DNA from: an uncultured Desulfosarcina sp.
Lineage (GTDB): Bacteria > Desulfobacterota > Desulfobacteria > Desulfobacterales > Desulfosarcinaceae
DNA: 64,000 nt
Assembly (NCBI GenBank): GCA_963674945.2
Contig: CAXXWQ010000003.1
Location: 2,400,001 to 2,464,000, forward strand
Direction: 5' to 3'
Shown: positions 6,215 through 37,068 of the stretch, piece after piece
Numbering within the stretch: the stretch's first letter is position 1
How the letters are laid out: every line of letters begins with the position of its first letter
Translations under genes and position numbers: made by a program
The notes under the pieces: generated by a model
What the model saw: the letters and a program-made list of their open reading frames with translations, nothing else
What the model was told of the DNA's origin: nothing
The model's database searches: none

Positions 6215-6604
6215 GATTAATGGATCATCGGAAGGTTTGTCAGAGTTGAAGCATTAAAATGGGCAGAAACCATGTATAAAATAGTCGGGGGTCGGTAACG
6301 GCCCCCAAAGGAGTCCCTCACATCGGGCTCCAAAAGGTCGCCAATCCAATTAGCGCGACTGGGCACACCATGGGCGGCGTAATCGCTGTCTTCCGGAACC
6401 GACCGGCACAGGGCCTGCCATACCGAATTTAAAACGAGGTGAAGACAGATGAACATCAATAGAAAGGAGCAAAGTTACAAAGAAAACCAGGACGTAATCG
6501 ATGGATTGAATTTATCGGCTGGTCAGTCTGTTGTTTCAGCAGATACACCATTATCTTCGGGAGATCTAAACAATGGATTGACATTAACCGACCAGAAGAA
6601 GATT

Positions 6605-6928
6605 ATGACCCCCAAGGAAACAGCCCAGTATTTAGGAAAAAGCCTTTCATGGGTTTACAAGAATGTAGCCCTACTGGGCGGTAGGAAGCTCGGAGGTTCT
6701 CTGTTTTTCCCTGCGAAGGAGGATCTCTATGAGCACTTATTTGGTAAAGGAGAAGGGGTGGAGGTACGACTTCACTCTGGAAGGGACCAGACACACCAAA
6801 GGATGGTTCCAAAGAAAACGAGACGCCGTCAAGGCGGAAATGGAAAGAAAGGAGGAGCTAAAGAATCCGGCACCACCGCTCGAAGAGGTGGAGACGCCAA
6901 CAGACATGGCCTTTTTGGATCTGGTTAA
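6605..6928 (+). CDS. Excisionase-like HTH protein (tail overlaps integrase in another frame)
   Basis: MTPKETAQYLGKSLSWVYKN..GGRKLGGSLFF, Xis-like HTH directly upstream of the integrase; start uncertain. Confidence 0.65.
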   Translation: MTPKETAQYLGKSLSWVYKNVALLGGRKLGGSLFFPAKEDLYEHLFGKGEGVEVRLHSGRDQTHQRMVPKKTRRRQGGNGKKGGAKESGTTARRGGDANRHGLFGSG

Positions 6929-7835
6929 TTGTCGCCTGGACTACGTAAAAGCATATAATTCAGATCGGCACTATACAGATCATCTTTACCTGGCTAAGCG
7001 TTGGGTCAAAGAATGGGGAAAACGAAATTGTAGTGATATTGCCCCTACAATGATCCAAAACTATCTCATAAAGCGTTTTCGGCAGACATCAGGATACACG
7101 GCAAATAAAGAACTGCGCTACCTTCGTGCCCTATTCAACTTTGCCATGCATCCGACGAGGAACTGGATGGATTTCAACCCGACCCGCGGCATAGAATTTT
7201 TTCCGGTGGAAAAACGTATCAAATACGTCCCGCCCAAAAAAGACGTGCTCCAGGTCATCTTGGCTGCCGATCCGGAAACCCAGGATTACCTCTGGACCAT
7301 TGCATTGACAATGGGACGCATGGGGGAAATCAACCGTCTTACATGGCGAGATGTAAATTTTGAAGCTCGCTGTGTGACTCTTTATACAAGGAAGAAAAAG
7401 GGCGGACATTTAACCCCCCGCAGTGTTCCGATGACCGGCAAGCTTTTCGAGGTGCTGGTCCGGCGATTTGAGATGCGGGATAAAGACAAACCCTGGGTAT
7501 TTTGGCATCGCTATTGGAGCCGGAAACATAACCGCTGGATCGAGGGACCATACATCGAGCGGAAAAAAATCATGACGACGCTCTGTAAAAAAGCAGGGGT
7601 CAAGTATTTTCGCTACCATGCGTTGAGGCATTTTGGAGCTTCGATGCTGGACTCTGCAAAAGTCCCGATTGGATCGATTCAGCGTATTCTTGGGCACGAA
7701 AATCGGACGACAACCGAGATTTATTTACACTCCGTAGGCGAGGGTGAGCGCCATGCAATGGACATTCTGGATGAGGGTTTTTGCGAATTTTCTCACACAG
7801 ATTCTCACACAGAAAAAAAGGGATTACAGAACTGA
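6729..7835 (+). CDS. Tyrosine recombinase/integrase of island 1
   Basis: MGRMGEI (R), TRKKK (K), HALRH, LGH, TTEIY; ends beside the att repeat. Confidence 0.95.
   Translation: MSTYLVKEKGWRYDFTLEGTRHTKGWFQRKRDAVKAEMERKEELKNPAPPLEEVETPTDMAFLDLVNCRLDYVKAYNSDRHYTDHLYLAKRWVKEWGKRNCSDIAPTMIQNYLIKRFRQTSGYTANKELRYLRALFNFAMHPTRNWMDFNPTRGIEFFPVEKRIKYVPPKKDVLQVILAADPETQDYLWTIALTMGRMGEINRLTWRDVNFEARCVTLYTRKKKGGHLTPRSVPMTGKLFEVLVRRFEMRDKDKPWVFWHRYWSRKHNRWIEGPYIERKKIMTTLCKKAGVKYFRYHALRHFGASMLDSAKVPIGSIQRILGHENRTTTEIYLHSVGEGERHAMDILDEGFCEFSHTDSHTEKKGLQN
7790..7812. repeat. Tandem TTCTCACACAG x2, probable arm-type sites of island 1
   Basis: Copies at 7790-7800 and 7802-7812, about 45 bp from the att core. 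Confidence 0.55.
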
Positions 7836-7856: not shown

Positions 7857-7906
<50 letters not shown>

Positions 7907-8112: not shown

Positions 8113-9432
8113 ATGGCAAGACAAAAACTGACGGCGGGACGGGTGCAAGATTTCAAGGTGGCGAAAGGGTCAAAACAGTCCTTTTTGTGGGATTCGGAGG
8201 TGCCCGGGCTGGGTGTCAGGGCCACAAGAACCGCCAAAGTATATGTTTTTCAGGGCCGCCTCCTTTCCGGGGCGACGATCCGGCTTAAAATTGGCGATTG
8301 CCGGACATGGGCAATAGATTCAAATGATTCAGAAGTTCCAGGGGCACGTCAGGAGGCTCGACGGTTACGGGCAATGCTTGATAAGGGCATCGATCCCCGA
8401 GAGGAAAAATTGAAAATCCTGGCCGAGATCGTGGCGAAGATGGATGAAACCGAAAGACAAGAGGTTACCGTCTCCGAAGCGTGGGCGGATTATCTCAAAG
8501 CCCGTCGGCCAAAATGGAGTGATCGCCATTACCGTGACCATGAGTCGCTGGCGGATCCGGGTGGCCGTAAAGCCAAGCGAGGAAAAAAGAAGATCAAGGC
8601 TGGTCCCTTGGCCTCCCTGATGGACGTAAAGCTCATCGACTTGACACAAGAGAAAGTTATGGAATGGGCCACCCATGAAGCAAAGGAACGGGCCGCACGC
8701 ACCCGGCTTGCCTTTTCTCTCCTTCGTGCCTTCATCAATTGGTGCGGTGATCAGCACCAATATAAGGGATTGTGCCCGCCCGATGCTTGCTCGAGTCAAA
8801 TAAAGCGGGACATACTTCCGAAGCAACAACCGAAAACCGACTGTCTCCAAAAAGAGCAGCTTAAAGCTTGGTTTGAAGCGGTCCGCGGATATCAAAACGC
8901 AGTCATATCGAGCTACCTCCAAACTCTCCTCCTTGTCGGCGCCAGGCGTGAGGAGCTGTCACATTTGAGATGGGATGATGTGGATTTTAGATGGAAATCC
9001 ATAGTCATCCATGACAAGGTGGAGGGCGAACGCACCATTCCCCTGCCCCCTTATGTCGCCAGCTTGTTGGCTGGCATTCCGAAGCGCAATGAATGGATAT
9101 TCTCAAGCCCATCGGCGGAATCAGGCCGGATCCAAGAGCCCCGTCATGCCCATAATAAATGTCTTGTCAATGCCGGTATTGAGGGATTGACACTCCATGG
9201 CCTACGCCGATCATTCGGCACTCTGTCTGAATGGGTCGAGGTCCCGGTGGGTGTGGTGGCACAGATCATGGGACATAAGCCATCCGCCATCGCCGAGAAA
9301 CATTACCGGCGCCGGCCCCTTGATCTTTTGAGGAAGTGGCATGTGAAAATTGAAAAATGGATCTTAAAGCAGGCCGGCATTGAGCAGCCCGCCGAAGGTG
9401 CCGAGCCCGGCAAAATACAAGTGGTCAAATAG
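8113..9432 (+). CDS. P4-type tyrosine integrase with N-terminal arm-binding domain
   Basis: LWDSEVPGLGVR arm domain; GARREEL, HGLRR, MGH, KHY catalytic motifs. Confidence 0.95.
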   Translation: MARQKLTAGRVQDFKVAKGSKQSFLWDSEVPGLGVRATRTAKVYVFQGRLLSGATIRLKIGDCRTWAIDSNDSEVPGARQEARRLRAMLDKGIDPREEKLKILAEIVAKMDETERQEVTVSEAWADYLKARRPKWSDRHYRDHESLADPGGRKAKRGKKKIKAGPLASLMDVKLIDLTQEKVMEWATHEAKERAARTRLAFSLLRAFINWCGDQHQYKGLCPPDACSSQIKRDILPKQQPKTDCLQKEQLKAWFEAVRGYQNAVISSYLQTLLLVGARREELSHLRWDDVDFRWKSIVIHDKVEGERTIPLPPYVASLLAGIPKRNEWIFSSPSAESGRIQEPRHAHNKCLVNAGIEGLTLHGLRRSFGTLSEWVEVPVGVVAQIMGHKPSAIAEKHYRRRPLDLLRKWHVKIEKWILKQAGIEQPAEGAEPGKIQVVK

Positions 9433-11592: not shown

Positions 11593-12546
11593 ATGATGAA
11601 AATGGGACAAGTCCAATTATCAAAGAATTCAGGAAAAATTTTCCATTGTTTCAAGGGCCGTAGTCGTCAATTGGTGGCGGACATCATCACCATTATCGAT
11701 GAGATGGAAAAATATCATCCGTTGACGGTCCGTCAGATCTATTACCAATTGGTAGCAAGGGAAATCATTGCGAACAACCGAAAAGAGTATCAGAACATCA
11801 GCCGACTTCTTACCCGGATGCGTGAGGAACACCTTGTACCGTGGAGTGCAATTGTCGATCGTTCCCGGCGTATGGTTGAGAAGCGCGGAACATCCTCCAT
11901 CGAAGACCACATCCGAGAGAATGCGGCCTATCTTTTCGATGGATACAATCGGTGCCTCGTTCAGAACCAGGAAAATTACGTCGAGGTATGGACTGAGAAG
12001 GATGCACTATCATCCATCTTCGAAGATGCCGTATGGAAATACTGTTGCCGGATCGTCGTCTGCAGGGGGCAGATTTCAGCGACCTTCCTAAATGAATACG
12101 CGGAACGAGCGGAAGCAGCAATTAAGCGAGGCCAGGAGCCGGTTATTCTATATTACGGTGACCTTGACCCCACAGGGATGCGGATACCTGAGATAATCGG
12201 GAACAAGCTAATCGACCGGTACGGTTTAGTTGTCAATATCGATAGGATTGCATTATGGCCGGAAGACGTTGACCGGCACAACCTTCCCTTCAATCCAGAC
12301 GCCACTAAAAAAGCAGACCCGAATCATGCTTGGTATTGCTCACGTGGATACGGTGATTATTCGGTCGAACTTGATGCACTGCACCCTGAAACACTCATAA
12401 ATATAATCGACGATGCCTTGCGTGACCACCTCGATATTGATGACATGATTTGTCAGCAGGACATTCAGGAAGACGAACGGCTCCTTCTCAAGCGACTAAA
12501 GTTGAAATTTTTCGACATATGTCGGGACGAAAATTTACACGTATAG
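11593..12546 (+). CDS. Topoisomerase VI subunit A/Spo11-like wHTH + TOPRIM protein
   Basis: TVRQIYYQL (candidate Tyr), EVWTEKDAL, RG, YYGDLDPTG (DxD), ELDAL. Confidence 0.75.
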   Translation: MMKMGQVQLSKNSGKIFHCFKGRSRQLVADIITIIDEMEKYHPLTVRQIYYQLVAREIIANNRKEYQNISRLLTRMREEHLVPWSAIVDRSRRMVEKRGTSSIEDHIRENAAYLFDGYNRCLVQNQENYVEVWTEKDALSSIFEDAVWKYCCRIVVCRGQISATFLNEYAERAEAAIKRGQEPVILYYGDLDPTGMRIPEIIGNKLIDRYGLVVNIDRIALWPEDVDRHNLPFNPDATKKADPNHAWYCSRGYGDYSVELDALHPETLINIIDDALRDHLDIDDMICQQDIQEDERLLLKRLKLKFFDICRDENLHV

Positions 12547-19494: not shown

Positions 19495-21564
19495 CTATGT
19501 AATGTTACTCATCTCAATTTGGATACCTGTGAGAAGTCCATCCAACATACACTGCTGCAATATGAAATAGCAGTCACGAACTTCGCTTGGTTTCTTGCTT
19601 TCAAGGTCCTGCTTGAGATATGCCAACAGATCAGCAGACGCCCCAGAGGTGAGGACGAGGTGCACGCTTTCGTGCCGGTATATCTTAACCCTATGCAACG
19701 CGTGCCATAATCCCGGATATGCAGATTTGATCTCTGTCCAGTAGTATTGCCTATTGCCTATTGATGCTCCATAGTTCTCGATTGATTCAACAAAGCACTG
19801 GTTGCAAATATTGGTGAATAATTTGAACTCGCGTTCTGTGTTGACGACATCGGTATTGTAAAATTCGTCAGCCCTTGGAAAGGAGTTCGGGCCGAATACG
19901 CTTGGCATATTAGCCTGTTTTATAGCACACTCAAGAAGTCGAAAATCTGATGTTACTGTTTTTATACGCTTGTTCACCCAGGTGTGTCGATCCGATGGAG
20001 GAACCACTCTGAAGAGCGTCTGTCTCCCTTCTTTTCTCGCTAGCTCCATGCCCACATATCGGCCGACAACAGGAATCGTAATAGCAGGCCTATGGTATCT
20101 ATCCTTTCCAAGCAGGCCATAAGAGCGGAGATGCTTTGTGTACTCAGGATACGCGGCTAACTCCACGAAATCGTGTATTTGCCCCGATGCAAGCAGCTCA
20201 AGCATTTCATATTCGTCAGGATAGAATTGTTTTAGTTCGGAGACAACATGGCGACAGTAGAACATGAGCTCAGAGTCACGTTCAACTTCGTATGCTTCCA
20301 AGGAATCTCGTGTGAATTGAATTGGGCGCTCGCCTCCACGTTGTGTCACAAGTTGCCCCTCAGTGCTACACGCCATTCGCGTTAACAAAGGGTGGCCACC
20401 ATAGCGGCTATAGATGTATTTAACAGCGGTATGATCGAACTTCAAACCCATTCGCTTGCCGAGAGTGCGGATCATGTTCCGTGTTTCATCCTGTGTTAAC
20501 CCTGTCAGGAACTGGTAAGACACGATACCGAATAAAGGATTCTGAATGCCATCTACTGAGTCCATTTCAACAGCAGACGGATTAACGCCTGCGATCATGG
20601 CACAAAGCGACCGGTGCCTACTTTGACAAGCCCAGAATGTTTGCCAAAACGCAACAAAATCTTTACGCCAGTGCGGATCGTCCTGTGCGATTGGGGAAAT
20701 GTACTCGATTTCATCGAAAATCAGAAGGACCGGTTTGGGAAGTAATGCAGCCAATTGGTAAAGCACATCGGATGCGTGACGCTCATCGCAATTTCCTATA
20801 TTTGGTAGGCCAAAGCTTTGAGACAATTGCTCGCAAATGTTCTGAATAAGCTCATACCACCTGAGCTTCCGAATGGATGGTAGCTTACAGTCGAAATATA
20901 AGACCTCCGCAAGTCCGGCCTTATTGAGCATTCTTTCGAGTTTGAAAAGTAATGATGTCTTGCCGGTTTTACGCAGCCCAAAGATTCCTCTGTTCTCAGC
21001 ACGTTTTATCGAATCGAAAAGATTGACGGCAAGTTCTGATCGACCGAAAAAGTAGGTATCATACTCAAGCGGAAGGCGATAGTCGAAAAGGTCGCGACCG
21101 TAAAGCAATCTGCTTGTTTTATTACGAATGTACCATGCGTCGGCAGCGTGTGATCTGACCTCGCCTGCCGATAGTGGTATAATCAAACGGGACTCTTGGT
21201 TCATAGAGATATAGGATTGGATCCATTGTTCTGTATCCGTCGCTTCTGATACGAAATAATATGTAAGCTTTTCAACACGCCCACGTGCGGGATCATCGCC
21301 CATAAATGACTCCGCCGCTTGAATTGAGCGAGGCTCAATGCGTGGGTACTTAGAATACACAAGCATCACTTCTTGATCGAACCCATAGGCTTCAGACATG
21401 AAGGGCTCTGGGCTTAAAATATATACCGACAAATCGGTGTTGTAGGCGCGTCGATGCCGTGCCCACGTAACAAAAAAGGCGGGCAAGAAAGCCTTGAGGA
21501 AGTCCTCCTCATCGGGATAACGGTTAAGATGTTGCTCTCTAACTTCTGTTCGTATGGCACCCAT
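19495..21564 (-). CDS. STAND-like P-loop ATPase with C-terminal RxxxxH (HEPN-like) motif; candidate defence protein
   Basis: FFGR, Walker A GLRKTGKTS, Walker B LLIFDEIE, GGHP, C-terminal YRHESVH; oriented against the backbone. Confidence 0.75.
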   Translation of the reverse strand: MGAIRTEVREQHLNRYPDEEDFLKAFLPAFFVTWARHRRAYNTDLSVYILSPEPFMSEAYGFDQEVMLVYSKYPRIEPRSIQAAESFMGDDPARGRVEKLTYYFVSEATDTEQWIQSYISMNQESRLIIPLSAGEVRSHAADAWYIRNKTSRLLYGRDLFDYRLPLEYDTYFFGRSELAVNLFDSIKRAENRGIFGLRKTGKTSLLFKLERMLNKAGLAEVLYFDCKLPSIRKLRWYELIQNICEQLSQSFGLPNIGNCDERHASDVLYQLAALLPKPVLLIFDEIEYISPIAQDDPHWRKDFVAFWQTFWACQSRHRSLCAMIAGVNPSAVEMDSVDGIQNPLFGIVSYQFLTGLTQDETRNMIRTLGKRMGLKFDHTAVKYIYSRYGGHPLLTRMACSTEGQLVTQRGGERPIQFTRDSLEAYEVERDSELMFYCRHVVSELKQFYPDEYEMLELLASGQIHDFVELAAYPEYTKHLRSYGLLGKDRYHRPAITIPVVGRYVGMELARKEGRQTLFRVVPPSDRHTWVNKRIKTVTSDFRLLECAIKQANMPSVFGPNSFPRADEFYNTDVVNTEREFKLFTNICNQCFVESIENYGASIGNRQYYWTEIKSAYPGLWHALHRVKIYRHESVHLVLTSGASADLLAYLKQDLESKKPSEVRDCYFILQQCMLDGLLTGIQIEMSNIT

Positions 21565-21895
21565 TTTTTAATCTCCACATCCAGCCCAAACAGTTATTCA
21601 AAAGATCTGTATAACATCACCTCTGTAGTGTATTACAGAAACTCACCTCTTATTTCGGAACATTTTGATACTACCCCCAAAAATAAGGAAGTGTCAAAAA
21701 GATTTCAAAAAAAGGCACCAGATAGCTTTTGACTGACGTTCCGGTGCAAAAACTTCACTTGACACAGCCCCATCATTATGGGAAATGAGAAGAACAACGG
21801 CAAACTCCGTTGCCCGGTTTGGCGACCGGAAATAGTACCGAGGCTGATAAGCGCCCCCCATACTGTACAAGGCGTTTTTTTGTTGTATAGTAAGA

Positions 21896-21968
21896 GCGGG
21901 CCATACGCGGAGACCTTCGGGTCTGCCGGTTTCCTCGGTAACCGGTTCGCCAACCGCGTGTGGCCCGC
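21896..21968 (+). ncRNA. c4/CI-type antisense RNA
   Basis: 15-bp closing stem GCGGGCCATACGCGG/CCGCGTGTGGCCCGC; AGACC-TTCG-GGTCT; CCGGTT-TCCTCGGT-AACCGG; single-stranded TTCGCCAA. Complements lie upstream (21819-21825, 21836-21843) and downstream (21977-21983, 22010-22017). Confidence 0.88.
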
Positions 21969-22025
21969 CTTTTTGTTTGGCGACAATAAGGCGGACTCTT
22001 TAAATTTTAACCGAGGAGATCCGCA

Positions 22026-22295
22026 ATGCAAAACACCAGTCCCAAATCCACGCCCGCACCACCGACCGTCCAATTAACCGAAACAATCCAAACAGCCCAT
22101 GACTGCAGTAGCCACGCGAAAGCTCTCTTAGACCAACTAAATCTCTTACTAAACAAATCCCCCGAGAACAAAGAAGATGGATTCGCGCAAAACGTCCTGG
22201 CATTCGCCGGCGTCAACCAGGCACTGGGCTTCATATGCGACACTGTCGACGACCTTGAGAAGGCCATATCCCTTCTGGAAGGAGGTGCCTCATGA
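22026..22295 (+). CDS. Small helical protein, array member 1
   Basis: SD GAGGAG overlaps the downstream c4 target; ends LLEGGAS. Confidence 0.75.
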   Translation: MQNTSPKSTPAPPTVQLTETIQTAHDCSSHAKALLDQLNLLLNKSPENKEDGFAQNVLAFAGVNQALGFICDTVDDLEKAISLLEGGAS

Positions 22296-22567
22296 CAGTA
22301 CAAGCCATGGTATGCACCACCCCCAAACCATCCACCACCGATCGGCTCAAAGAGATCATCGACGAGGCCCAATATTTCGGCGCCCATGCCAAGGCGATGG
22401 TCAGGCAGTTAAGGGCCGCCATGAGAGAGACACCGCTCACCGTAGACGATCTGTACGCTCAAAGTGTCCTCGTTTACCACGGCATTGATTGGATAGAGGA
22501 AAATGTTGACAGTATCGTCAACGATCTGGACCGAGCCCTCAATCTTCTGAAAGGGGGTGCCATATGA
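22292..22567 (+). CDS. Small helical protein, array member 2
   Basis: ATGA overlap; HAKAM..L and VNDLDRALNLLKGG mirror member 1. Confidence 0.78.
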   Translation: MTVQAMVCTTPKPSTTDRLKEIIDEAQYFGAHAKAMVRQLRAAMRETPLTVDDLYAQSVLVYHGIDWIEENVDSIVNDLDRALNLLKGGAI

Positions 22568-22770
22568 CGATGACAGCTGATCAAGCCATGGTCACCATCA
22601 GCCGCGGCGGCCAAGCCCTGGGCTTCCTTGACGCCCTGGATGCCCTCTCGAAGCTTTCCCCGGCAACAGGCCACCCGGTGGAGACCGAAACCCTGAAACG
22701 GATCTATAACGAGCTGCAGCAACGATACGTCGAGCGATACCGGCCGAAAGGAGGTGCCGCATGCAAATAG
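22564..22770 (+). CDS. Small helical protein, array member 3
   Basis: ATGA overlap; shares QAMV with member 2 and QALGF with member 1. Confidence 0.72.
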   Translation: MTMTADQAMVTISRGGQALGFLDALDALSKLSPATGHPVETETLKRIYNELQQRYVERYRPKGGAACK

Positions 22771-22949
22771 CTGACAGAATCGAAAACTGTGCCCTCAGGC
22801 TGTATGTCGCTATGAGGATGGTCGACGACGATGACGATGAGATGATGGCTGAAGCGGTAACCAATCTATGCCTGATCATAGACGATGTGTTGGAACGGCT
22901 CAACGACATGGCCATGGAGATCAGGAAGGAAAGGAGGGCCACCGAATGA
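22761..22949 (+). CDS. Small acidic helical protein, array member 4
   Basis: AAAGGAGG SD; LCLIIDDVLERL helix. Confidence 0.75.
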   Translation: MQIADRIENCALRLYVAMRMVDDDDDEMMAEAVTNLCLIIDDVLERLNDMAMEIRKERRATE

Positions 22950-23170
22950 AACAAGACATTCCCGACTTAACCGTCGAATTTTCGGAAGTCATGTCACGAA
23001 TCGCATGCGTTCAAGAGATCCTTTTGCTCTCCAAAGAAAACGATTTAAGGGAAGGTATGCTTGACGCTGCTGCTGTGGTTCTCGGCGACGCGATGAGCGG
23101 CTTGGAGGCCATCGAAGCGGGGTTGTATAAGCCCACCGAAACAGTCGGTTTGAAAGGGGGTGACGAATGA
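22946..23170 (+). CDS. Small acidic helical protein, array member 5
   Basis: Start reassigned to ATG 22946 (MKQDIPDL) after AAAGGAGG with ATGA overlap. Confidence 0.75.
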   Translation: MKQDIPDLTVEFSEVMSRIACVQEILLLSKENDLREGMLDAAAVVLGDAMSGLEAIEAGLYKPTETVGLKGGDE

Positions 23171-23346
23171 TCAGAAACCTCCACGAAAGCATAAACGCGC
23201 TGAAGGCTATATGCTCCCTCTTGCTAAGTGTCGGTGCTGAAGACGGCGCCGAAATAGACCACGACGAAATGACCGGTGCAGGCCTCATCTTGGAAAATAT
23301 CATCGACGATCTTAAGGCATATGCAGAAAGGAGCACGGCACAATGA
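23167..23346 (+). CDS. Small acidic helical protein, array member 6 (59 aa, absent from ORF track)
   Basis: MIRNLHESINALKAICSLLLSVGAEDGAEIDHDEMTGAGLILENIIDDLKAYAERSTAQ; ATGA overlaps at both ends. Confidence 0.8.
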   Translation: MIRNLHESINALKAICSLLLSVGAEDGAEIDHDEMTGAGLILENIIDDLKAYAERSTAQ

Positions 23347-23552
23347 GACCAAGGGACCTTTATGAGAATATCAAAGCATTGAGAGCTGTAAGCCTCCTGT
23401 TGTTATGTGCCGGCAGTGACGAAAGTTTGCAGCTGCAACACGAAGAGCTCACGGGGATCAGCTATCTGGTTGATGACATCATTGATAACATCGTTGCCGA
23501 TATCGAAGAATCTGGTGCACCGGGATTTGGTGCGCCGGGAGATGATCAATAG
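23343..23552 (+). CDS. Small acidic helical protein, array member 7
   Basis: Aligns gap-free with member 6. Confidence 0.8.
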   Translation: MRPRDLYENIKALRAVSLLLLCAGSDESLQLQHEELTGISYLVDDIIDNIVADIEESGAPGFGAPGDDQ

Positions 23553-23631
23553 ATCCAGCACCACCATGGCCCCTGGCGGCGGATCCCAGGGGCCATGCCA
23601 CCAAGACCAAGCCAAGCCGTAGGGGGCGAGG

Positions 23632-24165
23632 ATGGCAAGAAAACACGACAACGGGTATGGCAAGGGAACATTCATCGATACCAAAATGTTCCTGTCTGAG
23701 GCATTCTTAAGCCTTGGACAGCCTGGAACTTCGCCGGCCATATCAAGCGTTTCCACGCAGGTCTTGATCATGATCCTTGGCAAGCGTCAATTCAGTAATG
23801 CCAAAGACCGGAAAGGCCTGAAAACCAAGCAGCGGACCGACGACAATAGATTTGCCCTTACTTACAAAGAACTTTTATCCTATGGTGCCAGGTTGGATAG
23901 AAATGGCAATAGGGTTAAGGGATGCATGACGATACCCAAAATCACAAGGGCGATTGATGAATTGTTGGCAAAAGGCTTCATTGAAGTCGTCGAGTATGGT
24001 GGCGCGTATGAAAAGCACAAATCGATTTATGCGCTCGTTGACGATTGGGCAACATGGAAGGTGGGTGATCCACCAATAAGAATAAGATCAAATGATGTCA
24101 AACGTGGGTATCAGGGCAAGCCCTTGGGGGCTGTTAAAAAACAATTTTCGCGCACACGAACGTAG
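23632..24165 (+). CDS. Winged-helix DNA-binding protein, possible replication initiator
   Basis: FALTYKEL...ITRAIDELLAKGFIEVVEYGG...SIYAL; followed directly by iteron-like repeats. Confidence 0.7.
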   Translation: MARKHDNGYGKGTFIDTKMFLSEAFLSLGQPGTSPAISSVSTQVLIMILGKRQFSNAKDRKGLKTKQRTDDNRFALTYKELLSYGARLDRNGNRVKGCMTIPKITRAIDELLAKGFIEVVEYGGAYEKHKSIYALVDDWATWKVGDPPIRIRSNDVKRGYQGKPLGAVKKQFSRTRT

Positions 24166-24937: not shown

Positions 24938-25137
24938 ATGGTGAAAATGGACTGACCATTGGTAGACTCCCTCTTCCTGATGGTTAGTCGGGCCACGGAC
25001 CAGGCCCGCCAGGTGACAGCGACCATCGATGGACAATGGAGATACTGACTAAGTTTTTCTTAGGCAGTTGGAATACCGTCGCCATTACCGACTGTATTCC
25101 CGGCCGGCAATCCAGCCCCGGCCCATCCACAATCCAC

Positions 25138-25387: not shown

Positions 25388-26006
25388 AAGGAATTATAAC
25401 CGCCCGAAAATACTTAAACCGAACGAAACGATCGGTTTAGAGTTTGGTCCCCGTGGCAAGTTGCCACCACCCTGCATTTAACGCAGGGTGTACACCCGGC
25501 CCAATCCAAATACGGCGAATCACCGTGTTTGACCTACTTATCCGTGTTGTCAAAGTAATACATCAGAGTTGCTGAGGTTTTAATCGGCCACCCCATCAAG
25601 TTGTCGGACATCTTCGTAACCTGGTGGCCTCACTAAAAATGTCGATGGTGGGAATGAAGAGGCAACCAGATAAGGACTTTCGCCAGTTCCGATGGCCATC
25701 AATATCCCCGGCCCGATAAATTCTCGGGTCAGGCACACCAGGTGACAGCGAATGTCGATGGGCCGTGGAAGCACTAACTACGTTTTTCTTTGGCAGCCAG
25801 GAAACAAACCGTCATTACTAATGACACTTTGACAAGCACCCGAAATTATTAAAAGGCGTTGAATCAGCGGGTTTGACAAAAAGCCCTCGTGGCTGGCACA
25901 ATCATTATCACCGAATCCGATCCAACTTGCCGACAGGCAGCCCCCATCACCGGCATGAAGTGGCCAATGAAAAACATCAGAATTTCCATCAACTTGACGG
26001 GTATCT

Positions 26007-27835: not shown

Positions 27836-28348
27836 CTACTGATCACTTTTTCTTCGGATAAAAAAATCTACTTCACCATATTTTTTTTCAAAAGTTGGAT
27901 CTGGATTATCAATTGAAACGATAGCGCTAACAGGCCTTCCAAAAGGGATATTATCTGGTACTTTATAATAACCCAAAATTACGCCGGATTCTTGTTTGTC
28001 CGGCCCCCCAAAACGGCTTGTCCACCTTGCAAATTTTTCTTCAAACACCGATTGATCATTTTCCATGACAGTCAGGCTTAAAACAGCACTACTTTCGATG
28101 GGAGTACCGAAAGGGGGTGGTCTTTTGATGTATACACCAATAAGGTAAGTGCCAACATAATTGTGGGTCAGTTGTAGGTTTTGAGAGCTACTCTTTCCAT
28201 CTATTGTGATTTGTTGTTTTACAATCGGGCTATACAGATCTGATGGCGGCATTACTGCTAATAGAAATTTGCTATGGGGTCTAAGCCAGTAAAATACAAT
28301 TACTGCCACAATCATTATTATAACTATAAAGGAGATTCTTTTTGTCAT
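27836..28348 (-). CDS. Putative RHS immunity protein
   Basis: Starts 13 bp after the RHS stop; N-terminal TM/signal segment; AT-rich. Confidence 0.65.
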   Translation of the reverse strand: MTKRISFIVIIMIVAVIVFYWLRPHSKFLLAVMPPSDLYSPIVKQQITIDGKSSSQNLQLTHNYVGTYLIGVYIKRPPPFGTPIESSAVLSLTVMENDQSVFEEKFARWTSRFGGPDKQESGVILGYYKVPDNIPFGRPVSAIVSIDNPDPTFEKKYGEVDFFIRRKSDQ

Positions 28349-28361
28349 ATCAATTTCCTTA

Positions 28362-31300
28362 TTACGGTGTAGGTAAAGTTACAGTACCGCCTAACCGGAA
28401 ATACTCTTGTCTCAGAGCATCAGAGAAATCTTGGCAGTTATTTTCTGTTGCAACATTGTAATTGCTCCTATCCCAACGGCCTTCAAGGTTTCTTAACGCT
28501 CTTCGCATAATATCATCATCGTATATCGGCCCTCGGAATGTGTAATCACCCCTCGTATGGCCAGTATCTTCTCTTACTCTCCCTGGCTTATTCCACATTC
28601 CATTATCTCCGAAAAAACCTATATTGGTACGCAAGTTTGGATTCCTTGCAGCATCGTCAAACCAAAGCTGTTCATGCACCCATTCGGTATTGTGTTGATC
28701 GTCGAAAACATTAACACCGTCGGGATCATTAACACCGTAGGGAGGGATGAAACCCAGCTTATCGAGAGGTCTATAACCAAATTGTGCAAGTCCCCATGGA
28801 TCAATATAGTTGATGGGGTTGTTCGATGTGTATGAATAGAGGTTAATGCCCCCAGCCAACCCAATCGGATCAGCCGTTAGGTATCTCCCAGTGGCCGGAT
28901 CGTAGTAGCGATGGTAATTATAATGCAGGCCGGTTTCCTCATCGTAGTATTGGCCCGGCAACCGCAAGTTATTCTCAATAGTATTGACCGTAATACCACC
29001 ATTCGGAGCAAGTGGCATAGTCCAACCCACCTGACCAAACGGTTTGTAATCCGCAGCCCAAACCACCGTGCCGCTGCTATCGGTCATCTTTTGCGGGGTT
29101 CCCAGATGGTCAGTGTGGTAAATGTAAATATCTTCATTTGTACCATTGATTTTAACGTTTGCAAAGGGAACTCCATTGAGATAGATGTATAATTGCGTTA
29201 GATTTCCCAGAGCGTCGCTTTCTCCGATCAGACGGCCGTCTTTGTCATAATGATAATTGGTCGTCAACCCCCCGTGGATTTTCTTTATTCTTTGTCCCAT
29301 TGGGTTGTAAACATATTCCGTAGGCGTGGCCGTCACAGAAACCGCCGTCTCTGCCGCCGATGAAACCAAGTTTCCATCATCGTCGTAGCTGTGAATTACT
29401 GTTTTCCCTGGTGTTAATGATTCAGTTACATCCAGTTTATTGCTGTCGGGGTCATAACTGTAATCTCTTAACTCCATCGTCCATTCGACATTATTTTTCA
29501 GCACTTTTCTGTCATACCACTCTCGGTTGCCATTTGGCTCATAACCGGTGAAATCAACCGATCCATAAACTCCCGTGAAATAATCGATGCGGTATAAATT
29601 ATCATAGTTGAAATGTTGGTCACGGGTGCTGTCTGCTGTGTTTGAAATATCGGTGATGTTGCCGACATCATCAGGTATGAATTCAAGCCCCTGGATCGTA
29701 ACGCCGCCATTGATGGTACTATCATTGATTGTATCGATCCCATAGCTTAAATCGTAAGTTCTCACCGAGACGCTGTTGTTGGACCATGCATAAAGTGTCC
29801 TCATCGGTCCGAAGGGCTGGTAGTAAATGCCGTTGGCAAGAATTTGCAATGGTGAGGCATCGCTTTGTTTGTAATCCACCCCCGAAACTTGACCGGCACT
29901 ATCTCGATTATAGGATACGATTTGTCCCCCAGGCATAATCATCTTGTCGAGCAAGTTCCCTGAATCATAGACATATTCGGTTACGTAAGAAATGCCGTCT
30001 ACTATCTTGGTGACTTTGTTAAGATTCCCATTCGCATCGTATCCGTAACTATAGCTGCTGAAACCGTCGATCATTCCGGTCAAACGGCCGATACCATAAT
30101 TGATCCCGCTTTCGTAGGCATCATAGGTATAGATAACATCATGCTTGTCATAAGCATAATCCTCAAATTTCAGTCGGTTGAGGGCATCATAACTGTATGC
30201 AACGGTTATTCCGCTATTTTTTACCATGGTTTCAAGGGCACCAACCTCATTGTAGGCATATCGGGTTGTCCCGGTATCAGGGGAATTCCGTTTAACCATG
30301 CGGCTCATATCATCAAAAACGAAAATTGTTTCCAGTTCTTTCGCGTCTTTCACCGAAGAAAGGTTGCCATGCCTGTCGTAACCATAAATGACAACTTGAT
30401 TTTCCGGCTGAGTTATCGTAACCGGCCTGTTAAAGGAATCATAAAGGATGGTGCTCTCATTGAGTAGAGCATCGGTTATACTGTCTGTGTTGCCTGCGGC
30501 ATCATAACCGTAAAGAGTCTCCAAATCCGAGGTATCCTCATGGTTTCTCCAGATGATTTTCCAAAGTTTTCCCGGACTGTCCGGTGACTGGTAATCAAAA
30601 CGTTGCCAAAACTTCCGTTCACCAGTTGACCTATGAAAAGATACATCGTTTATATTTCCCTGGTTATCGTAGTCGTATAGCTGGTAATTGCTAAGACCGT
30701 CTGTGATGGTTTTGAGAAGGCCATTTTTAAGGACGCCATTTGTAGAGTCATAATAGCCAAATCCTATCGATCTTCCCGCGCCGTCGGTTTCGCTGACAAT
30801 ATTTCCGGAAATGTCATACCTTATAGATTGAGTAATACTATCGGTGGTCCAACCCAGCAATCGGTTGCGACCGTCATATTGATCAAAGGTCGTTAGCACA
30901 TTGTTCCGGTCGACAACGTTACCGGGATTGCCGGCGGCATCGTAGCCTCCAAATGTTGTTGTTCCTACTATCGGTCGGGTAATGGTTTCCAGGTCGCCTG
31001 TCAGTGGATAATATGTAAACGCTGTTGTGTCATCCGCACCAGAAAGCGGTCCATCGACACTTTCAATTTGCCCTTCTGGATTGTAATAATATGCTGTTAC
31101 ATATTCATAGGCAATGACTTCCCCATTTTCATCATAGGTAAACCCCTTTTCGATTAACCGGCTCAATCGTGGCGTGGGATTTTCATTTGGAATTGTATTG
31201 CCGTCATCGTCATAATCCCAGATGGTTTCTTTCAGGCGAGATCCGTCACCCGTATCCAACGTGCTGATTTCAGTACGGCTAAGCAGCAGTCTCAAGTATG

Positions 31301-33011
31301 GAAAGCTTGTTTCATCGTAGGTGAAATGGATAACACGTTCATCAACAGCCCCAGAAGCAAGCCTCACGGTCGTTGCATTATCCTGGCTGTCATAGTCTTC
31401 AAAACTATCAATTCTTCCATTGGCGTACTCTTTTTCCATAATTCTGCCGCTGGTATCATAGTCAATCCGAACTACATCTTCATTGCAGGTTGAACATCCA
31501 ACCGTTCCCTGAGCCTGGATAATACGTTTGCGGGCATCAATTGACGAATCAATCGTGTACGAGCGGGTAAAATCGTAAGCGTCCGTTACATCTACCTGAG
31601 TTTCACTCACGAAAAGGATGGTGACTCCTGTTCCTTCTCTGTTTATGTTCTTATAAGCTTTGTCATTGTATCCATAGAACCATGTTGCTAAAGTGTTTGA
31701 CTGCTTATCACTTTTTTGGGTCAGATTGTGATCATCGTTTGGATCCTCATACTTATAATCAAATCCAGACCCATCAGCATAAGTGACTGAATCCAAATTG
31801 TTATTGGTGTCGTATCCAAAAGAAACCCAGATGCCATTGGGAATGCTTTGGGTGACTGGCCCGACAATATGGTCAAGATTGTTATTCGCATTATAATAAA
31901 ATGTCAGGCTACGGTTGCTGGATTGATCAAGAATCGTTTCCAAGCGGTTGTAGCTATTATATGAGAGTGATAGCTGGTTGCCATTTCGATCCTCAATTCT
32001 TATCAAAACGCCGTACTCATCAAAGAAATAAAGCAGGCTGTCGTTACGCTTCCACACATATTCGTTATTTTCCAACACGACTGAACTCTTTTCATTGTAA
32101 AGACCAATGAAGTTGATATTGTCTGTTGTTGAAAAAAACACGCCTCGTCCGGACTCATCTTTGATTTTAATCATACTGGAATCGGAGTAGTTAGTGGTCA
32201 GTACGGCACTGAAACTATGAGACCATCCGTATCCGAGGGCTCCGCTCTGAGTGGACTGGCTGTTATAGAATCGTTTGAAAACCAAACCATTATGAAATGG
32301 TGATGGGAGTGAGATATCTCTCTCTCTTTCCACCAAGTTGCCGCTTAAAATGTTTATCGGGTCACCTTTTTTTTCACATATCCGATATGGGGGGAGATTG
32401 ATTTCGTTTCCCAAGTAAAGTTCGGTCTCCCAGTCGCAGGCATCGCCCACACCGTCACCATCATGATCCAGCTGACCTGGGTTAAACTCCTCTATACAGT
32501 TGTCTGTGCAGTCGCCTACCCCATCTCCGTCAAAATCGTTTCCCTCGCAGCAATCAAAGTCTCCATCGCCGTCAGAATCCGGTAGCCAAAAATAAGCGTA
32601 CAGGACGTCGTCAAACATTTGTGTTTCCGAATTATATGTACTATCCTTGTGGCAGATAGCAGATGGATTAGCAGTCCCTGAGTACATATGGGGCATGTAT
32701 ACAGATTCGAGAACATAACTAATAGGGTTTGTCGGGTGGTTTGACTGAATTGCAGCAAAAGCTTCGTTGTAGCTATCGTAAACTCCCATTGCATGACCAA
32801 TAAAATTAATACTTCCGTCTGTCCATACAGCATCGTGAAAAGAACCACAATCAGGGCTTAGCTCAGCCCCAAAGACATCGTGGCTGAATAGCAGAGGAAA
32901 GTGAAATCCAAAGAGGGTAACGATTATGGTTATGGTAATTGATTTAACCGACATCAATTTCGACTTAAAGTGATAAGCCTTGATAAAAAAAGCAGAAATT
33001 CGCCTCATCAT
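28362..33011 (-). CDS. RHS/YD-repeat polymorphic toxin with signal peptide, TSP3-like repeats and papain-like C-terminal domain
   Basis: DGDGVGDACD repeats, GDPINILSGN..LGYGWSH (DUF6531-like), YD repeats, core PGQYYDEETGLHYNYHRYYDP..DPIGL..DPWGL, tip with HEQ and YNVATENNCQDF. Confidence 0.93.
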   Translation of the reverse strand: MMRRISAFFIKAYHFKSKLMSVKSITITIIVTLFGFHFPLLFSHDVFGAELSPDCGSFHDAVWTDGSINFIGHAMGVYDSYNEAFAAIQSNHPTNPISYVLESVYMPHMYSGTANPSAICHKDSTYNSETQMFDDVLYAYFWLPDSDGDGDFDCCEGNDFDGDGVGDCTDNCIEEFNPGQLDHDGDGVGDACDWETELYLGNEINLPPYRICEKKGDPINILSGNLVERERDISLPSPFHNGLVFKRFYNSQSTQSGALGYGWSHSFSAVLTTNYSDSSMIKIKDESGRGVFFSTTDNINFIGLYNEKSSVVLENNEYVWKRNDSLLYFFDEYGVLIRIEDRNGNQLSLSYNSYNRLETILDQSSNRSLTFYYNANNNLDHIVGPVTQSIPNGIWVSFGYDTNNNLDSVTYADGSGFDYKYEDPNDDHNLTQKSDKQSNTLATWFYGYNDKAYKNINREGTGVTILFVSETQVDVTDAYDFTRSYTIDSSIDARKRIIQAQGTVGCSTCNEDVVRIDYDTSGRIMEKEYANGRIDSFEDYDSQDNATTVRLASGAVDERVIHFTYDETSFPYLRLLLSRTEISTLDTGDGSRLKETIWDYDDDGNTIPNENPTPRLSRLIEKGFTYDENGEVIAYEYVTAYYYNPEGQIESVDGPLSGADDTTAFTYYPLTGDLETITRPIVGTTTFGGYDAAGNPGNVVDRNNVLTTFDQYDGRNRLLGWTTDSITQSIRYDISGNIVSETDGAGRSIGFGYYDSTNGVLKNGLLKTITDGLSNYQLYDYDNQGNINDVSFHRSTGERKFWQRFDYQSPDSPGKLWKIIWRNHEDTSDLETLYGYDAAGNTDSITDALLNESTILYDSFNRPVTITQPENQVVIYGYDRHGNLSSVKDAKELETIFVFDDMSRMVKRNSPDTGTTRYAYNEVGALETMVKNSGITVAYSYDALNRLKFEDYAYDKHDVIYTYDAYESGINYGIGRLTGMIDGFSSYSYGYDANGNLNKVTKIVDGISYVTEYVYDSGNLLDKMIMPGGQIVSYNRDSAGQVSGVDYKQSDASPLQILANGIYYQPFGPMRTLYAWSNNSVSVRTYDLSYGIDTINDSTINGGVTIQGLEFIPDDVGNITDISNTADSTRDQHFNYDNLYRIDYFTGVYGSVDFTGYEPNGNREWYDRKVLKNNVEWTMELRDYSYDPDSNKLDVTESLTPGKTVIHSYDDDGNLVSSAAETAVSVTATPTEYVYNPMGQRIKKIHGGLTTNYHYDKDGRLIGESDALGNLTQLYIYLNGVPFANVKINGTNEDIYIYHTDHLGTPQKMTDSSGTVVWAADYKPFGQVGWTMPLAPNGGITVNTIENNLRLPGQYYDEETGLHYNYHRYYDPATGRYLTADPIGLAGGINLYSYTSNNPINYIDPWGLAQFGYRPLDKLGFIPPYGVNDPDGVNVFDDQHNTEWVHEQLWFDDAARNPNLRTNIGFFGDNGMWNKPGRVREDTGHTRGDYTFRGPIYDDDIMRRALRNLEGRWDRSNYNVATENNCQDFSDALRQEYFRLGGTVTLPTP

Positions 33012-33141
33012 TCTCTCCCTTATCGCTCTGCTTATGCTTGAATGGAAAATGTAAGTTCAGCATTAATGGGGTTGAATCCGTATGTAAATTCACAGTTGAA
33101 AGACCAGACAAATGATGAATCAAATGAGGAAGAGGTATCGA

Positions 33142-33687
33142 TCATCTTGGTTGTACCTTGATAAAATGGGTCATCCTTCCTCTTGCATCGTAAATATAAT
33201 AATCGCCTGGATTCAAAGTATCATTTTCGTGCGACAGGTCACCGCCTAAGTTATTGACTTCCCACCAGTCGGGAATGCTATCGCCATCGGAGTCCATGAC
33301 GCCGTCGGAGGGGTCCAGTCCAAGATTATATTCATCCATGTTGTTTAACCCGTCACCGTCATAATCATCGGTCGGTCCTTGCGATAGGTCAGGAAAATAC
33401 TGAAGCTCCCAGTTGTTGGGAAGACCGTCGTCGAAAGAGACGATAGTGAGCGTGCCTCCGGATTTGATCACAGTGGTGGGTCTCAGTTTGACGGTCGCCT
33501 CCGTCGCCAATGTCACATCCACGCCATCGTCCACCGTGCAGCTGTTTTGGGTGATGATATTACCCGTGGAAGTATATGTGTCGCTGGTGAGACCCCCTTC
33601 CAGGTAGAGGTCGGCGGCAGCGGCAACGGATACCGCCAAAGGAATTGCCGTCAATATCCAAATCAAACAGGTAATGAATCTGTTCAT
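33142..33687 (-). CDS. Secreted protein with Ca-binding DxDxDG repeats and one terminal YD repeat
   Basis: Signal peptide, DDGLPNNWE, DYDGDGLNNMDEY, DSDGDSIPDWWE, YIYDARGRMT. Confidence 0.82.
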   Translation of the reverse strand: MNRFITCLIWILTAIPLAVSVAAAADLYLEGGLTSDTYTSTGNIITQNSCTVDDGVDVTLATEATVKLRPTTVIKSGGTLTIVSFDDGLPNNWELQYFPDLSQGPTDDYDGDGLNNMDEYNLGLDPSDGVMDSDGDSIPDWWEVNNLGGDLSHENDTLNPGDYYIYDARGRMTHFIKVQPR

Positions 33688-33767
33688 CTTTTTTTCCTCG
33701 TGAGGTATTGTGGTGGAGGCAGGTCATGAGCGGTTACCAAAGAGCACTCTTCGATAATCGACTGGCA

Positions 33768-34889
33768 TCAAGATTTTTCCTCCAGTTTCGCCAGCCGGTC
33801 CAATACCTCATCCAAGGTCTTCTGGATGGCTTCGTTTTCCACTTTTAATTCATCGCTTACTGCCTTAAGCGCTTCGTTATCGGATTTTAGTTCTTCAACG
33901 GCAATCTGAAGCTCTTCGACAATATCCATGCTTGACGTCTGTTCCTTCAGTGTATCGATTTCAGTGCTCAGTTCCTTGACGGCTTCTACGATCGGCGGAA
34001 GTAATCGTGTGTATGCGATTGACTTGTAACCATCAGCGCCAGTCAGTACTAATTCCGGATATATCTCTTCTACTTCCTGGGCTATAAAGCCGAATTGATA
34101 TTTTTGATCCTTATCCGGCTTTTTCATTTTTGTGTGATATTTTACGCTGCGTAATTTCTTGATTTGGTCCAGTGAATCCCCAAGCTCCTCAATATCTTCC
34201 TTGATTCTTTCGTCCGAGGACTCACTAAAAATTCCATCTTCCCTAAAGAGGAAATACCCATTATCGTTCACCATAAGTTCTAAATAGGACACGCCATAAT
34301 AACCTCCAAAGAAGTTAGCCTTCATTGGTGTGCTCCAGTCGGTCATTAAATTCTGGACGATCAACCCGCCGGCCTTCGAACCTGCGACGGTCGTAGCGTC
34401 GCCTTTAACATGCAACATCGCACTCGGCGATGTCGTATTGATACCGACATTCCCAAATCTATTCTGAAACAATCCCAGATTCCATGGGATTGTCGAGCCG
34501 TTTGTACCGGAACCTGCGGATTCTAACCGGAAATTTCCGTTCTCATCCATCCGAAGCTTAATTGCGCCATTGCATGCACCGCAGTATTTATCATTGTTGT
34601 CCGCACCCGTCTTGATCTGCCAATTCCCGTATCCATCGTGTGTAGTTATACGAATTTGGCCACTGTCAAACCATATGTTGTCCTCACCTGTAAGATAAAT
34701 GGCAGGAGTTTCGTTCGCTCCCGGGACATGAAGCTTTCCCAGAGGATTCGTTACACCAACCCCGACTCTACCCTGCTCCGTTACAATCAAGCTCTCGGTA
34801 TCTTGGGAAAAAACAAAGGTAGGAGAAAAAAAGGTGAGAATAAACGCAATAATGATGGGCAATACGCATTGAACCGCTTTCATGGTCAT
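33768..34889 (-). CDS. Secreted fibre-like protein with Peptidase_S74 chaperone domain
   Basis: Signal peptide; GRVGVGVTNP/GNVGINTTSP repeats; SSDERIKEDI...GFIAQEVEEIYPELV...IAY; C-terminal coiled coil. Confidence 0.88.
   Translation of the reverse strand: MTMKAVQCVLPIIIAFILTFFSPTFVFSQDTESLIVTEQGRVGVGVTNPLGKLHVPGANETPAIYLTGEDNIWFDSGQIRITTHDGYGNWQIKTGADNNDKYCGACNGAIKLRMDENGNFRLESAGSGTNGSTIPWNLGLFQNRFGNVGINTTSPSAMLHVKGDATTVAGSKAGGLIVQNLMTDWSTPMKANFFGGYYGVSYLELMVNDNGYFLFREDGIFSESSDERIKEDIEELGDSLDQIKKLRSVKYHTKMKKPDKDQKYQFGFIAQEVEEIYPELVLTGADGYKSIAYTRLLPPIVEAVKELSTEIDTLKEQTSSMDIVEELQIAVEELKSDNEALKAVSDELKVENEAIQKTLDEVLDRLAKLEEKS

Positions 34890-36991: not shown

Positions 36992-37068
<77 letters not shown>

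Follow-up and report, generated by a model that had tools for sequence, protein, structure and literature searches.

A 64,000-nucleotide (nt) stretch of DNA from an uncultured Desulfosarcina sp. (contig CAXXWQ010000003.1, positions 2,400,001 to 2,464,000; hereafter the window, whose own numbering is used for all plain coordinates) carries a C4-type antisense RNA followed by seven small coupled genes, o1 to o7. This cassette is located within a 29-kb island between 49-nt tRNA-Arg repeats. Its features are as follows:

21759-21764, forward strand: TTGACA, likely -35 box of the operon promoter, as suggested by the sequence and its relatives
21819-21825, forward strand: upstream target site b1 (seqA-like leader), complementary to C4 positions 21947-21953
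21836-21843, forward strand: upstream target site a1, complementary to C4 positions 21933-21940
21889-21972, forward strand: C4 antisense RNA (RF01695; cmscan 67.8 bits, E = 5e-11, model positions 1-87)
21977-21983, forward strand: downstream target site b2, assigned by complementarity and co-variation
22010-22017, forward strand: downstream target site a2, overlapping the Shine-Dalgarno sequence of o1 (22013-22018)
22026-22295, forward strand: o1, 89 amino acids (aa), family A, isoelectric point (pI) 4.5
22292-22567, forward strand: o2, 91 aa, family A
22564-22770, forward strand: o3, 68 aa, family C, basic
22761-22949, forward strand: o4, 62 aa, family B
22946-23170, forward strand: o5, 74 aa, acidic, placed in none of the families A, B and C
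23167-23346, forward strand: o6, 59 aa, family B, duplicate of o7
23343-23552, forward strand: o7, 69 aa, family B, with the strongest, though weak, likeness to epsilon
23565-23597, forward strand: GC-rich hairpin 3' of o7, without a T tail, possibly the end of the operon

The RNA and the seven coupled open reading frames (ORFs) of 59-91 aa behind it had been proposed from the letters of the sequence before any search was made (the original prediction), and both were borne out. The C4 RNA matched RF01695 over the full length of the model with a score above the gathering score of 45 bits, and all seven ORFs (22026-23552) carried a coding signal. Two unpaired boxes of the RNA, a and b, are complementary to four sites of 7-8 nt, two of which are located upstream and two downstream. 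These boxes and their target sites co-vary across loci. Among 18 C4 loci from 11 of 151 genomes (one of which, L007, was mis-parsed yet kept in the count), cognate pairing of at least 7 nt with the downstream site was found at 16/18 loci for box a and 17/18 for box b, while the non-cognate values were 57/306 and 23/306. For the upstream sites, cognate pairing was found at 10/18 and 14/18 loci, and non-cognate pairing in 27/306 and 25/306 cases. The -35 hexamer is perfect and is found unchanged at the same position in related loci, which have better -10 boxes; the -10 box of the operon itself is poor, and its promoter was not listed by a consensus promoter scan. It is very probable that the C4 module is a working antisense switch over the array, with presumed processing of the RNA and presumed repression of the genes. 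According to the available text of the sources, the CI RNA of P4 with seqA and seqC has the same layout of RNA and flanking sites (PMC4825925), c4 of P1/P7 blocks the ribosome site ahead of ant (PMC12197685; PMC8198154), c4 of P1 controls icd and ant (PMC8198154), and the C4 RNA family has been catalogued over Proteobacteria and phages (PMC2864571). As a switch, the RNA is nothing unusual, and it adds a new member to an established RNA family. C4-type RNAs are widespread, and the function of their operons is known only for a few enterobacterial phages. A 99-aa ORF running across the RNA (21778-22077) was considered as an Ash protein and ruled out, for it had no Pfam or PHROG match. The leader also holds a 16-codon open frame (21785-21835) without a ribosome site, the start of which is not conserved in relatives.

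For each of the seven ORFs the called frame had the best codon-usage score of the six frames, judged by the genome's own codon usage, and the stretch was found unbroken and identical in contigs of two runs of the same sample, which may be where it came from. Neighbouring genes overlap by ATGA at five of the six junctions, and o3 and o4 overlap by 10 nt. Six of the seven proteins have a pI below 5 (net charges of -4 to -10), as against 85/1067 small and 363/4193 long background ORFs (~8%), and 11 of 13 checked proteins of families A, B and D (defined below) from other loci were also acidic. The protein o2 is predicted to form a two-helix hairpin (residues 15-45 and 51-86; predicted local distance difference test score, pLDDT, 83). 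The structure model of o3 is helical but of low confidence and too poor for use (pLDDT 59), and hydrophobic moments show two amphipathic stretches in each of o4 to o7, least marked in o5. No transmembrane segment was detected in the array proteins, the highest 19-residue hydrophobicity being 0.52. The original prediction noted that o6 was absent from its ORF track; with 59 aa, o6 would fall below a 60-aa ORF limit. On the 3' side of the array there is a winged-helix-like ORF (23632-24165), and an ORF of similar appearance, by eye, is located in a small capsid-bearing island at G000:C4:1708437-1708928 (G000 being the window's own genome).

The seven proteins had been described as apparently paralogous, which did not hold for the array as a whole: in the all-versus-all comparison (21 pairs) only two pairs were clearly similar. 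The proteins o1 and o2 align over 82 residues without gaps (37% identity, z = 25.7) and have HAKA and DL..A..LL.GG in common, and o6 and o7 align over 56 residues without gaps (39% identity, z = 19.4), both as had been noticed before; o4/o7 (z = 4.3) and o1/o3 (z = 3.8) are weak pairs. The same two pairs stand out at the DNA level (z = 7.9 for o1/o2 and 9.5 for o6/o7). Their identities at first, second and third codon positions (0.54/0.60/0.41 for o1/o2 and 0.48/0.77/0.30 for o6/o7) identify them as old duplications under protein-level selection. A family-A profile from three proteins of other genomes, with the window's own held out, recognized o1 (27 bits) and o2 (34 bits) against a background maximum of 10.9. 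The corresponding family-B profile gave 15.9 bits for o4, 15.3 for o6 and 9.3 for o7 against a background maximum of 5.4 (6601 ORFs) and left o1, o2, o3 and o5 unrecognized; it was built from nine hairpin-like proteins (eight from C4 loci, and P0101) and is biased, because its members were picked by eye. When profiles were instead made from the window alone, 7 of 42 unselected small C4-operon ORFs for o4/o6/o7 and 8 of 42 for o1/o2 were above the 99th percentile of the 6601 background ORFs, where ~0.4 of the 42 would be expected. Since o3 shares 49-54% identity with the genes that come first in the C4 operons L030 and L009, these tests together let the array be read as A-A-C-B-?-B-B. On these sequence comparisons the array comprises at least three families, A (o1, o2), B (o4, o6, o7) and C (o3), with o5 in none of them. 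A remote relationship between families A and B is possible (top-1% cross-ranks; profile-profile probability 2%).

Relatives of these proteins are scarce. Searches in Pfam, PHROG, NCBIfam and PADLOC gave no meaningful match for any array ORF, nor did sequence searches against the PDB, and with o1/o2 and o6/o7 as queries, homologue searches brought back nothing beyond the proteins of the window itself. A hidden Markov model (HMM) search of 1.84 billion proteins obtained 10 matches, namely 7 training sequences, P0101 (a new relative without context), one repeat artefact and one 1950-aa protein. Family A had only two weak matches in 400 genomes of the phylum; family C had none in 300 genomes of the order nor in viral contigs; the family-B profile found, in 65 genomes, only its training sequences and one weak match in a long frame. 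A loose DNA pattern was also run across 401 genomes and discarded as unspecific.

The recurring junction motif GAA(A)GGRG had been taken for a mark of duplication. It is the exact reverse complement of the 3' end of the 16S ribosomal RNA of this genome, with pairing energies of -17 to -20 kcal/mol at the ribosome sites of o2 to o6, and therefore represents a long Shine-Dalgarno sequence and no duplication mark in itself; as a general sign of duplication it was ruled out. In its full length it is rare: the genome has 12 copies, the array 4 and the second C4 operon 1. The recurrence of the motif, the ATGA overlaps and the DNA common to junctions 1 and 2 did stand: the shared DNA reaches into the 5' ends of o2 and o3, so that o2 starts with a copy of the 5' end of o3, and this likeness is the only true duplication trace among the junctions.

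Arrays of variable copy number behind C4 RNAs, for which the original prediction suggested a search, were found in other genomes, with one to five genes per related operon in differing orders. In the genus comparison of eight C4 loci, the window has seven genes and L015 has five (A-B-A-B-B, the frames of genes 1 and 5 being broken in what is a draft assembly); the DNA of L015 is the same as that of L031 from Desulfosarcina cetonica. L006 has A-B, and at both L009 and L011 a family-C gene precedes one of a fourth family, D, which was grouped by alignment only. L001, in the same genome as the window, has a gene outside the named families and a D-like gene; L010 has a single broken D-like gene, judged by eye, and L008 one unrelated gene. 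All five family-A copies in 65 genomes of the family (five of five, in three genomes) are directly behind a C4 RNA. Copies 1 and 3 of L015 are not nearest relatives (mutual z of only 2-3, as against 36-40 between copy 3 and gene 1 of L006), so that the arrays seem, as judged from these sequences, to grow by both duplication and module exchange. The order of duplication was read from pairwise scores only, the trees of A and B being mostly unresolved. In other families of the order (14 of 151 genomes) and in metagenomes, larger regulators often occupy the place after the RNA, either by themselves or next to a single hairpin gene. A family scan of six larger C4-operon genes chosen by eye assigned three to Bro-N, two to Rha and one to AntA. 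Related cassettes are present in small integrase elements, one of which carries a protease-capsid gene.

Two further observations concern the distribution of the switch. The second C4 cassette of the window's own genome (L001, G000:C4:1343739-1343825) has other recognition boxes and is located in a small island that also carries genes resembling those of primases and integrases; by prediction, the two switches would work without cross-reaction. Genomes of the genus g33 (G090, G169, G215 and G254) have two to eight C4 cassettes each, most of which precede near-identical Bro-N genes and differ in their boxes.

Our best explanation, held tentatively and at somewhat less than an even chance, is that this is a C4/CI-type cassette of seven coupled genes, in which the RNA silences the operon and the proteins are anti-repressors acting against the repressors of other phages or islands. 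By analogy with P1 and P4, a single transcript would start near 21790, and the C4 RNA would be cut out of it and pair both with the leader and with the site that covers the ribosome site of o1. The block would extend down the array because of translational coupling and polarity, and in the integrated state no ORF would be translated. When the island enters a naive cell, in which C4 has yet to accumulate, all seven proteins would be made in one burst. These small, mostly acidic hairpins would then bind DNA-binding repressors in the manner of P4 epsilon, which, in the available text of PMC2995052, binds the helper repressor P2 C; this is the weakest step of the model. Several diverged copies would widen the range of repressors, and so of helpers, that the island triggers. 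At the long common Shine-Dalgarno/ATGA joints, genes could readily be gained and lost in gene-sized units. Anti-repression is favoured because of the occupants of the slot (ant in P1, epsilon in P4, Bro-N, Rha and AntA in sister operons), because epsilon is described as acting by binding the helper repressor (PMC2995052), because six of the seven proteins are acidic as against ~8% of the background, and because language-model look-ups with o2 and o7 both gave the 'Derepression protein' (PF25738) cluster of epsilon at 0.85, which serves as a lead only. In P4, epsilon is placed 3' of the CI region.

A number of results weigh against this explanation. An epsilon HMM built from 68 proteins gave 3.2 bits for o7, a value reached by 14 of 6601 background ORFs, and nothing for the other six. 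Comparison of o6/o7 with an epsilon alignment by hhalign gave a probability of 18.7% (pairwise E = 0.0013, over 19 columns), that with a single epsilon sequence 0.4%, and profile comparisons of epsilon with families A and B 0.3% and 2%. PF25738, DUF3077, DUF6124 and NF047335 matched no ORF genome-wide even at E values up to 10, and fold searches with o2 gave no match with an E value of 0.001 or lower. With a pI of 9.3 epsilon is a basic protein, while the array proteins are mostly acidic. The array proteins would thus at best be epsilon-like in action and are not members of the epsilon family. Unlike in P4, the operon is apart from the primase and helicase genes of the island; from this position and the poor -10 box it follows that the operon may be a weakly expressed relic. 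No target repressor was identified.

A stronger form of the anti-repressor model, in which the array is an expandable battery of diverged epsilon-type proteins, with cassettes gained and lost at the Shine-Dalgarno joints and each copy keyed to a different prophage repressor, is doubtful. If it were true, one satellite could unlock many unrelated helpers, and families A, B and D, epsilon and DUF3077 would be one large unrecognized hairpin superfamily of C4-controlled anti-repressors. The original prediction had itself envisaged a battery of hairpin effectors (toxins, helper-phage interference or anti-defence decoys) under one RNA switch. The single switch, the coupled and mostly hairpin proteins, the duplications and the variable number and order were supported; a single seven-member paralogue family was not. 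The analyses gave no evidence for toxins or decoys, and anti-repression, tentative as it is, has the better support.

Other functions have to be weighed for the same proteins. They could be host inhibitors of the Icd/Kil type, arresting division or growth to buy time on entry, with C4 silencing their toxicity. P4 kil occupies the same position behind the RNA as P1 icd. In P1, icd, which encodes a division inhibitor, comes first after c4 (PMC8198154, in the available text), and a tight RNA lock suits toxic products; given that scans found no match to Icd/Kil-type families, that the proteins are without a transmembrane segment and that seven genes exceed the need of a timing function, we consider such a role unlikely. 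The acidity of these proteins and of their A, B and D relatives at other loci is also what acidic DNA mimics or decoys would have, expressed in a burst on entry to inhibit restriction, CRISPR or nucleoid proteins. Early, transient expression would suit anti-defence genes, and a rapid turnover would fit the near absence of relatives in the searches. Regulators fill the slot in sister operons and no known inhibitor was matched by sequence or fold, which leaves this role rather improbable.

The number of genes may also have little to do with a diversity of targets. There may be a single ancestral function, with copies piled up by slippage or recombination at the Shine-Dalgarno/ATGA joints, mostly as dosage or drift. 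Most related operons have only one or two such genes, frames are broken in genes 1 and 5 of L015 and in L010, and o2 opens with a copy of the 5' end of o3, all of which would be expected from such a process. But the duplicates are old (third positions 30-41% identical) yet intact, with conserved second positions, and all seven open frames have strong ribosome sites, so we regard this as a fairly small chance. The least probable of the explanations is that A and B chains are subunits pairing into helical bundles, so that the array would encode a few complexes: A is accompanied by B at three of three loci, and the A-B pair of L006 has its nearest counterparts in genes 3-4 of L015 (z = 36-40 and 8-9), but B-like genes occur without A at L039, L132 and L141.

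It had been stated that no system of this form was described. The architecture has precedents in c4-icd-ant of P1 and CI-kil-epsilon of P4, as well as in the Bro-N, Rha and AntA genes of sister operons, and by analogy the operon is best read as a P4-type (CI-kil-epsilon) early operon. P4 (seqA, CI RNA, seqC, kil, epsilon, orf151, cnr, alpha) has the same RNA family with complementary sites on both sides, small coupled genes joined by GGAGGTG-type overlaps, one of them before epsilon, and, like the element described here, is an integrase-bearing island at a tRNA; no capsid gene was found in the present island. In contrast, P4 has a fixed single-copy gene set, while the array has seven small genes with duplications, and the replication genes of its island are located upstream, outside the operon. 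No Ash, Kil, epsilon, sid, psu, delta or alpha match was found among the scanned ORFs. The available text of PMC8628076 gives psu, delta, sid, alpA, ash/epsilon and alpha as the P4-like core set, none of which was found among the 37 window ORFs scanned in Pfam, which included only part of the small island ORFs. The immI region of P1/P7 (c4, icd, ant1/2) resembles this cassette in its two-box RNA, in the downstream target over the ribosome site of the first gene and in the coupling downstream. The present element differs in not being a plasmid prophage, and none of the seven ORFs matched the icd and ant families. Epsilon (PF25738) is similar to array members in size, in its place behind the RNA and in its helix-loop-helix pattern, and an H-x-E-[LM]-[ST]-G stretch is common to o6, o7 and epsilon; the array ORFs are below every HMM threshold (the PF25738 cut-off is 27), and epsilon is single-copy in P4. 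DUF3077, DUF6124 and XAC0095-type proteins are linked to C4 RNAs. Like the array proteins they are small helical mobile-element proteins, and a putative DUF3077 cluster was the language-model neighbour of o2 at 0.88, but no HMM match was obtained.

The epsilon protein of P4 (L019:7888-8175) matches PF25738. In the available text of PMC8628076, 'epsilon' was detected with the Ash model PF10554; surveys of epsilon that use PF10554 may count the frame of the RNA region instead.

What is new at this locus is that the array has expanded to seven genes, which belong to several unnamed families and differ in number and order between sister islands. No literature was found on multi-gene paralogue arrays behind C4 RNAs or on these Desulfosarcina islands, in a search that covered few subscription papers. 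The position after the C4 RNA takes a variable set of genes for small, fast-evolving proteins without names, and this set can grow to seven. If these are anti-repressors, they make a compact test set for the widening of the helper range of satellites and would provide a function for many orphan hairpin proteins; if they are inhibitors, they are a ready-made source of new ones.

The island that hosts the cassette is defined by the following features:

7858-7906: left att repeat, 49 nt identical to the 3' part of tRNA-Arg
8113-9432, forward strand: tyrosine integrase of the island (PF00589 and PF13356)
36992-37040, reverse strand: right att repeat, inside tRNA-Arg (36992-37068)

Besides the integrase, the island carries genes for a primase, helicases, an AAA/STAND ATPase and an RHS protein, and no capsid, portal or terminase was found among the island ORFs scanned. 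It has an integrase and att repeats at a tRNA as P4-like elements do, yet this is a generic feature. We infer that the island depends on a helper. A large prophage-like region with a portal gene is present elsewhere in the genome (G000:C3, ~865000-930000); the same region has a gene cluster resembling, by eye, 7-deazaguanine (Que/FolE-type) synthesis enzymes. A second island of ~58 kb is located in tandem at the same tRNA-Arg site, with repeats at 7858-7906 of the window and at G000:C3:2349506-2349550, and its integrase and an excisionase-like gene are at 6449-7835.

The remaining genes of the first island include cargo on the reverse strand (27836-34889), which comprises a 1549-aa RHS-repeat protein with TSP3 repeats and an S74 chaperone-domain protein; a small gene downstream of the RHS gene is in the usual position for immunity. 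The 689-aa AAA/STAND-like ATPase (19495-21564, reverse strand) is divergent from the C4 operon and without a PADLOC match, and is possibly an uncharacterized defence gene. Just before the primase, a 317-aa protein (11593-12546) has a weak JetD/DUF2220 (Toprim-like) match, and the island interior has a 67-nt direct repeat, 79% identical, at 25001-25067 and 25730-25796.

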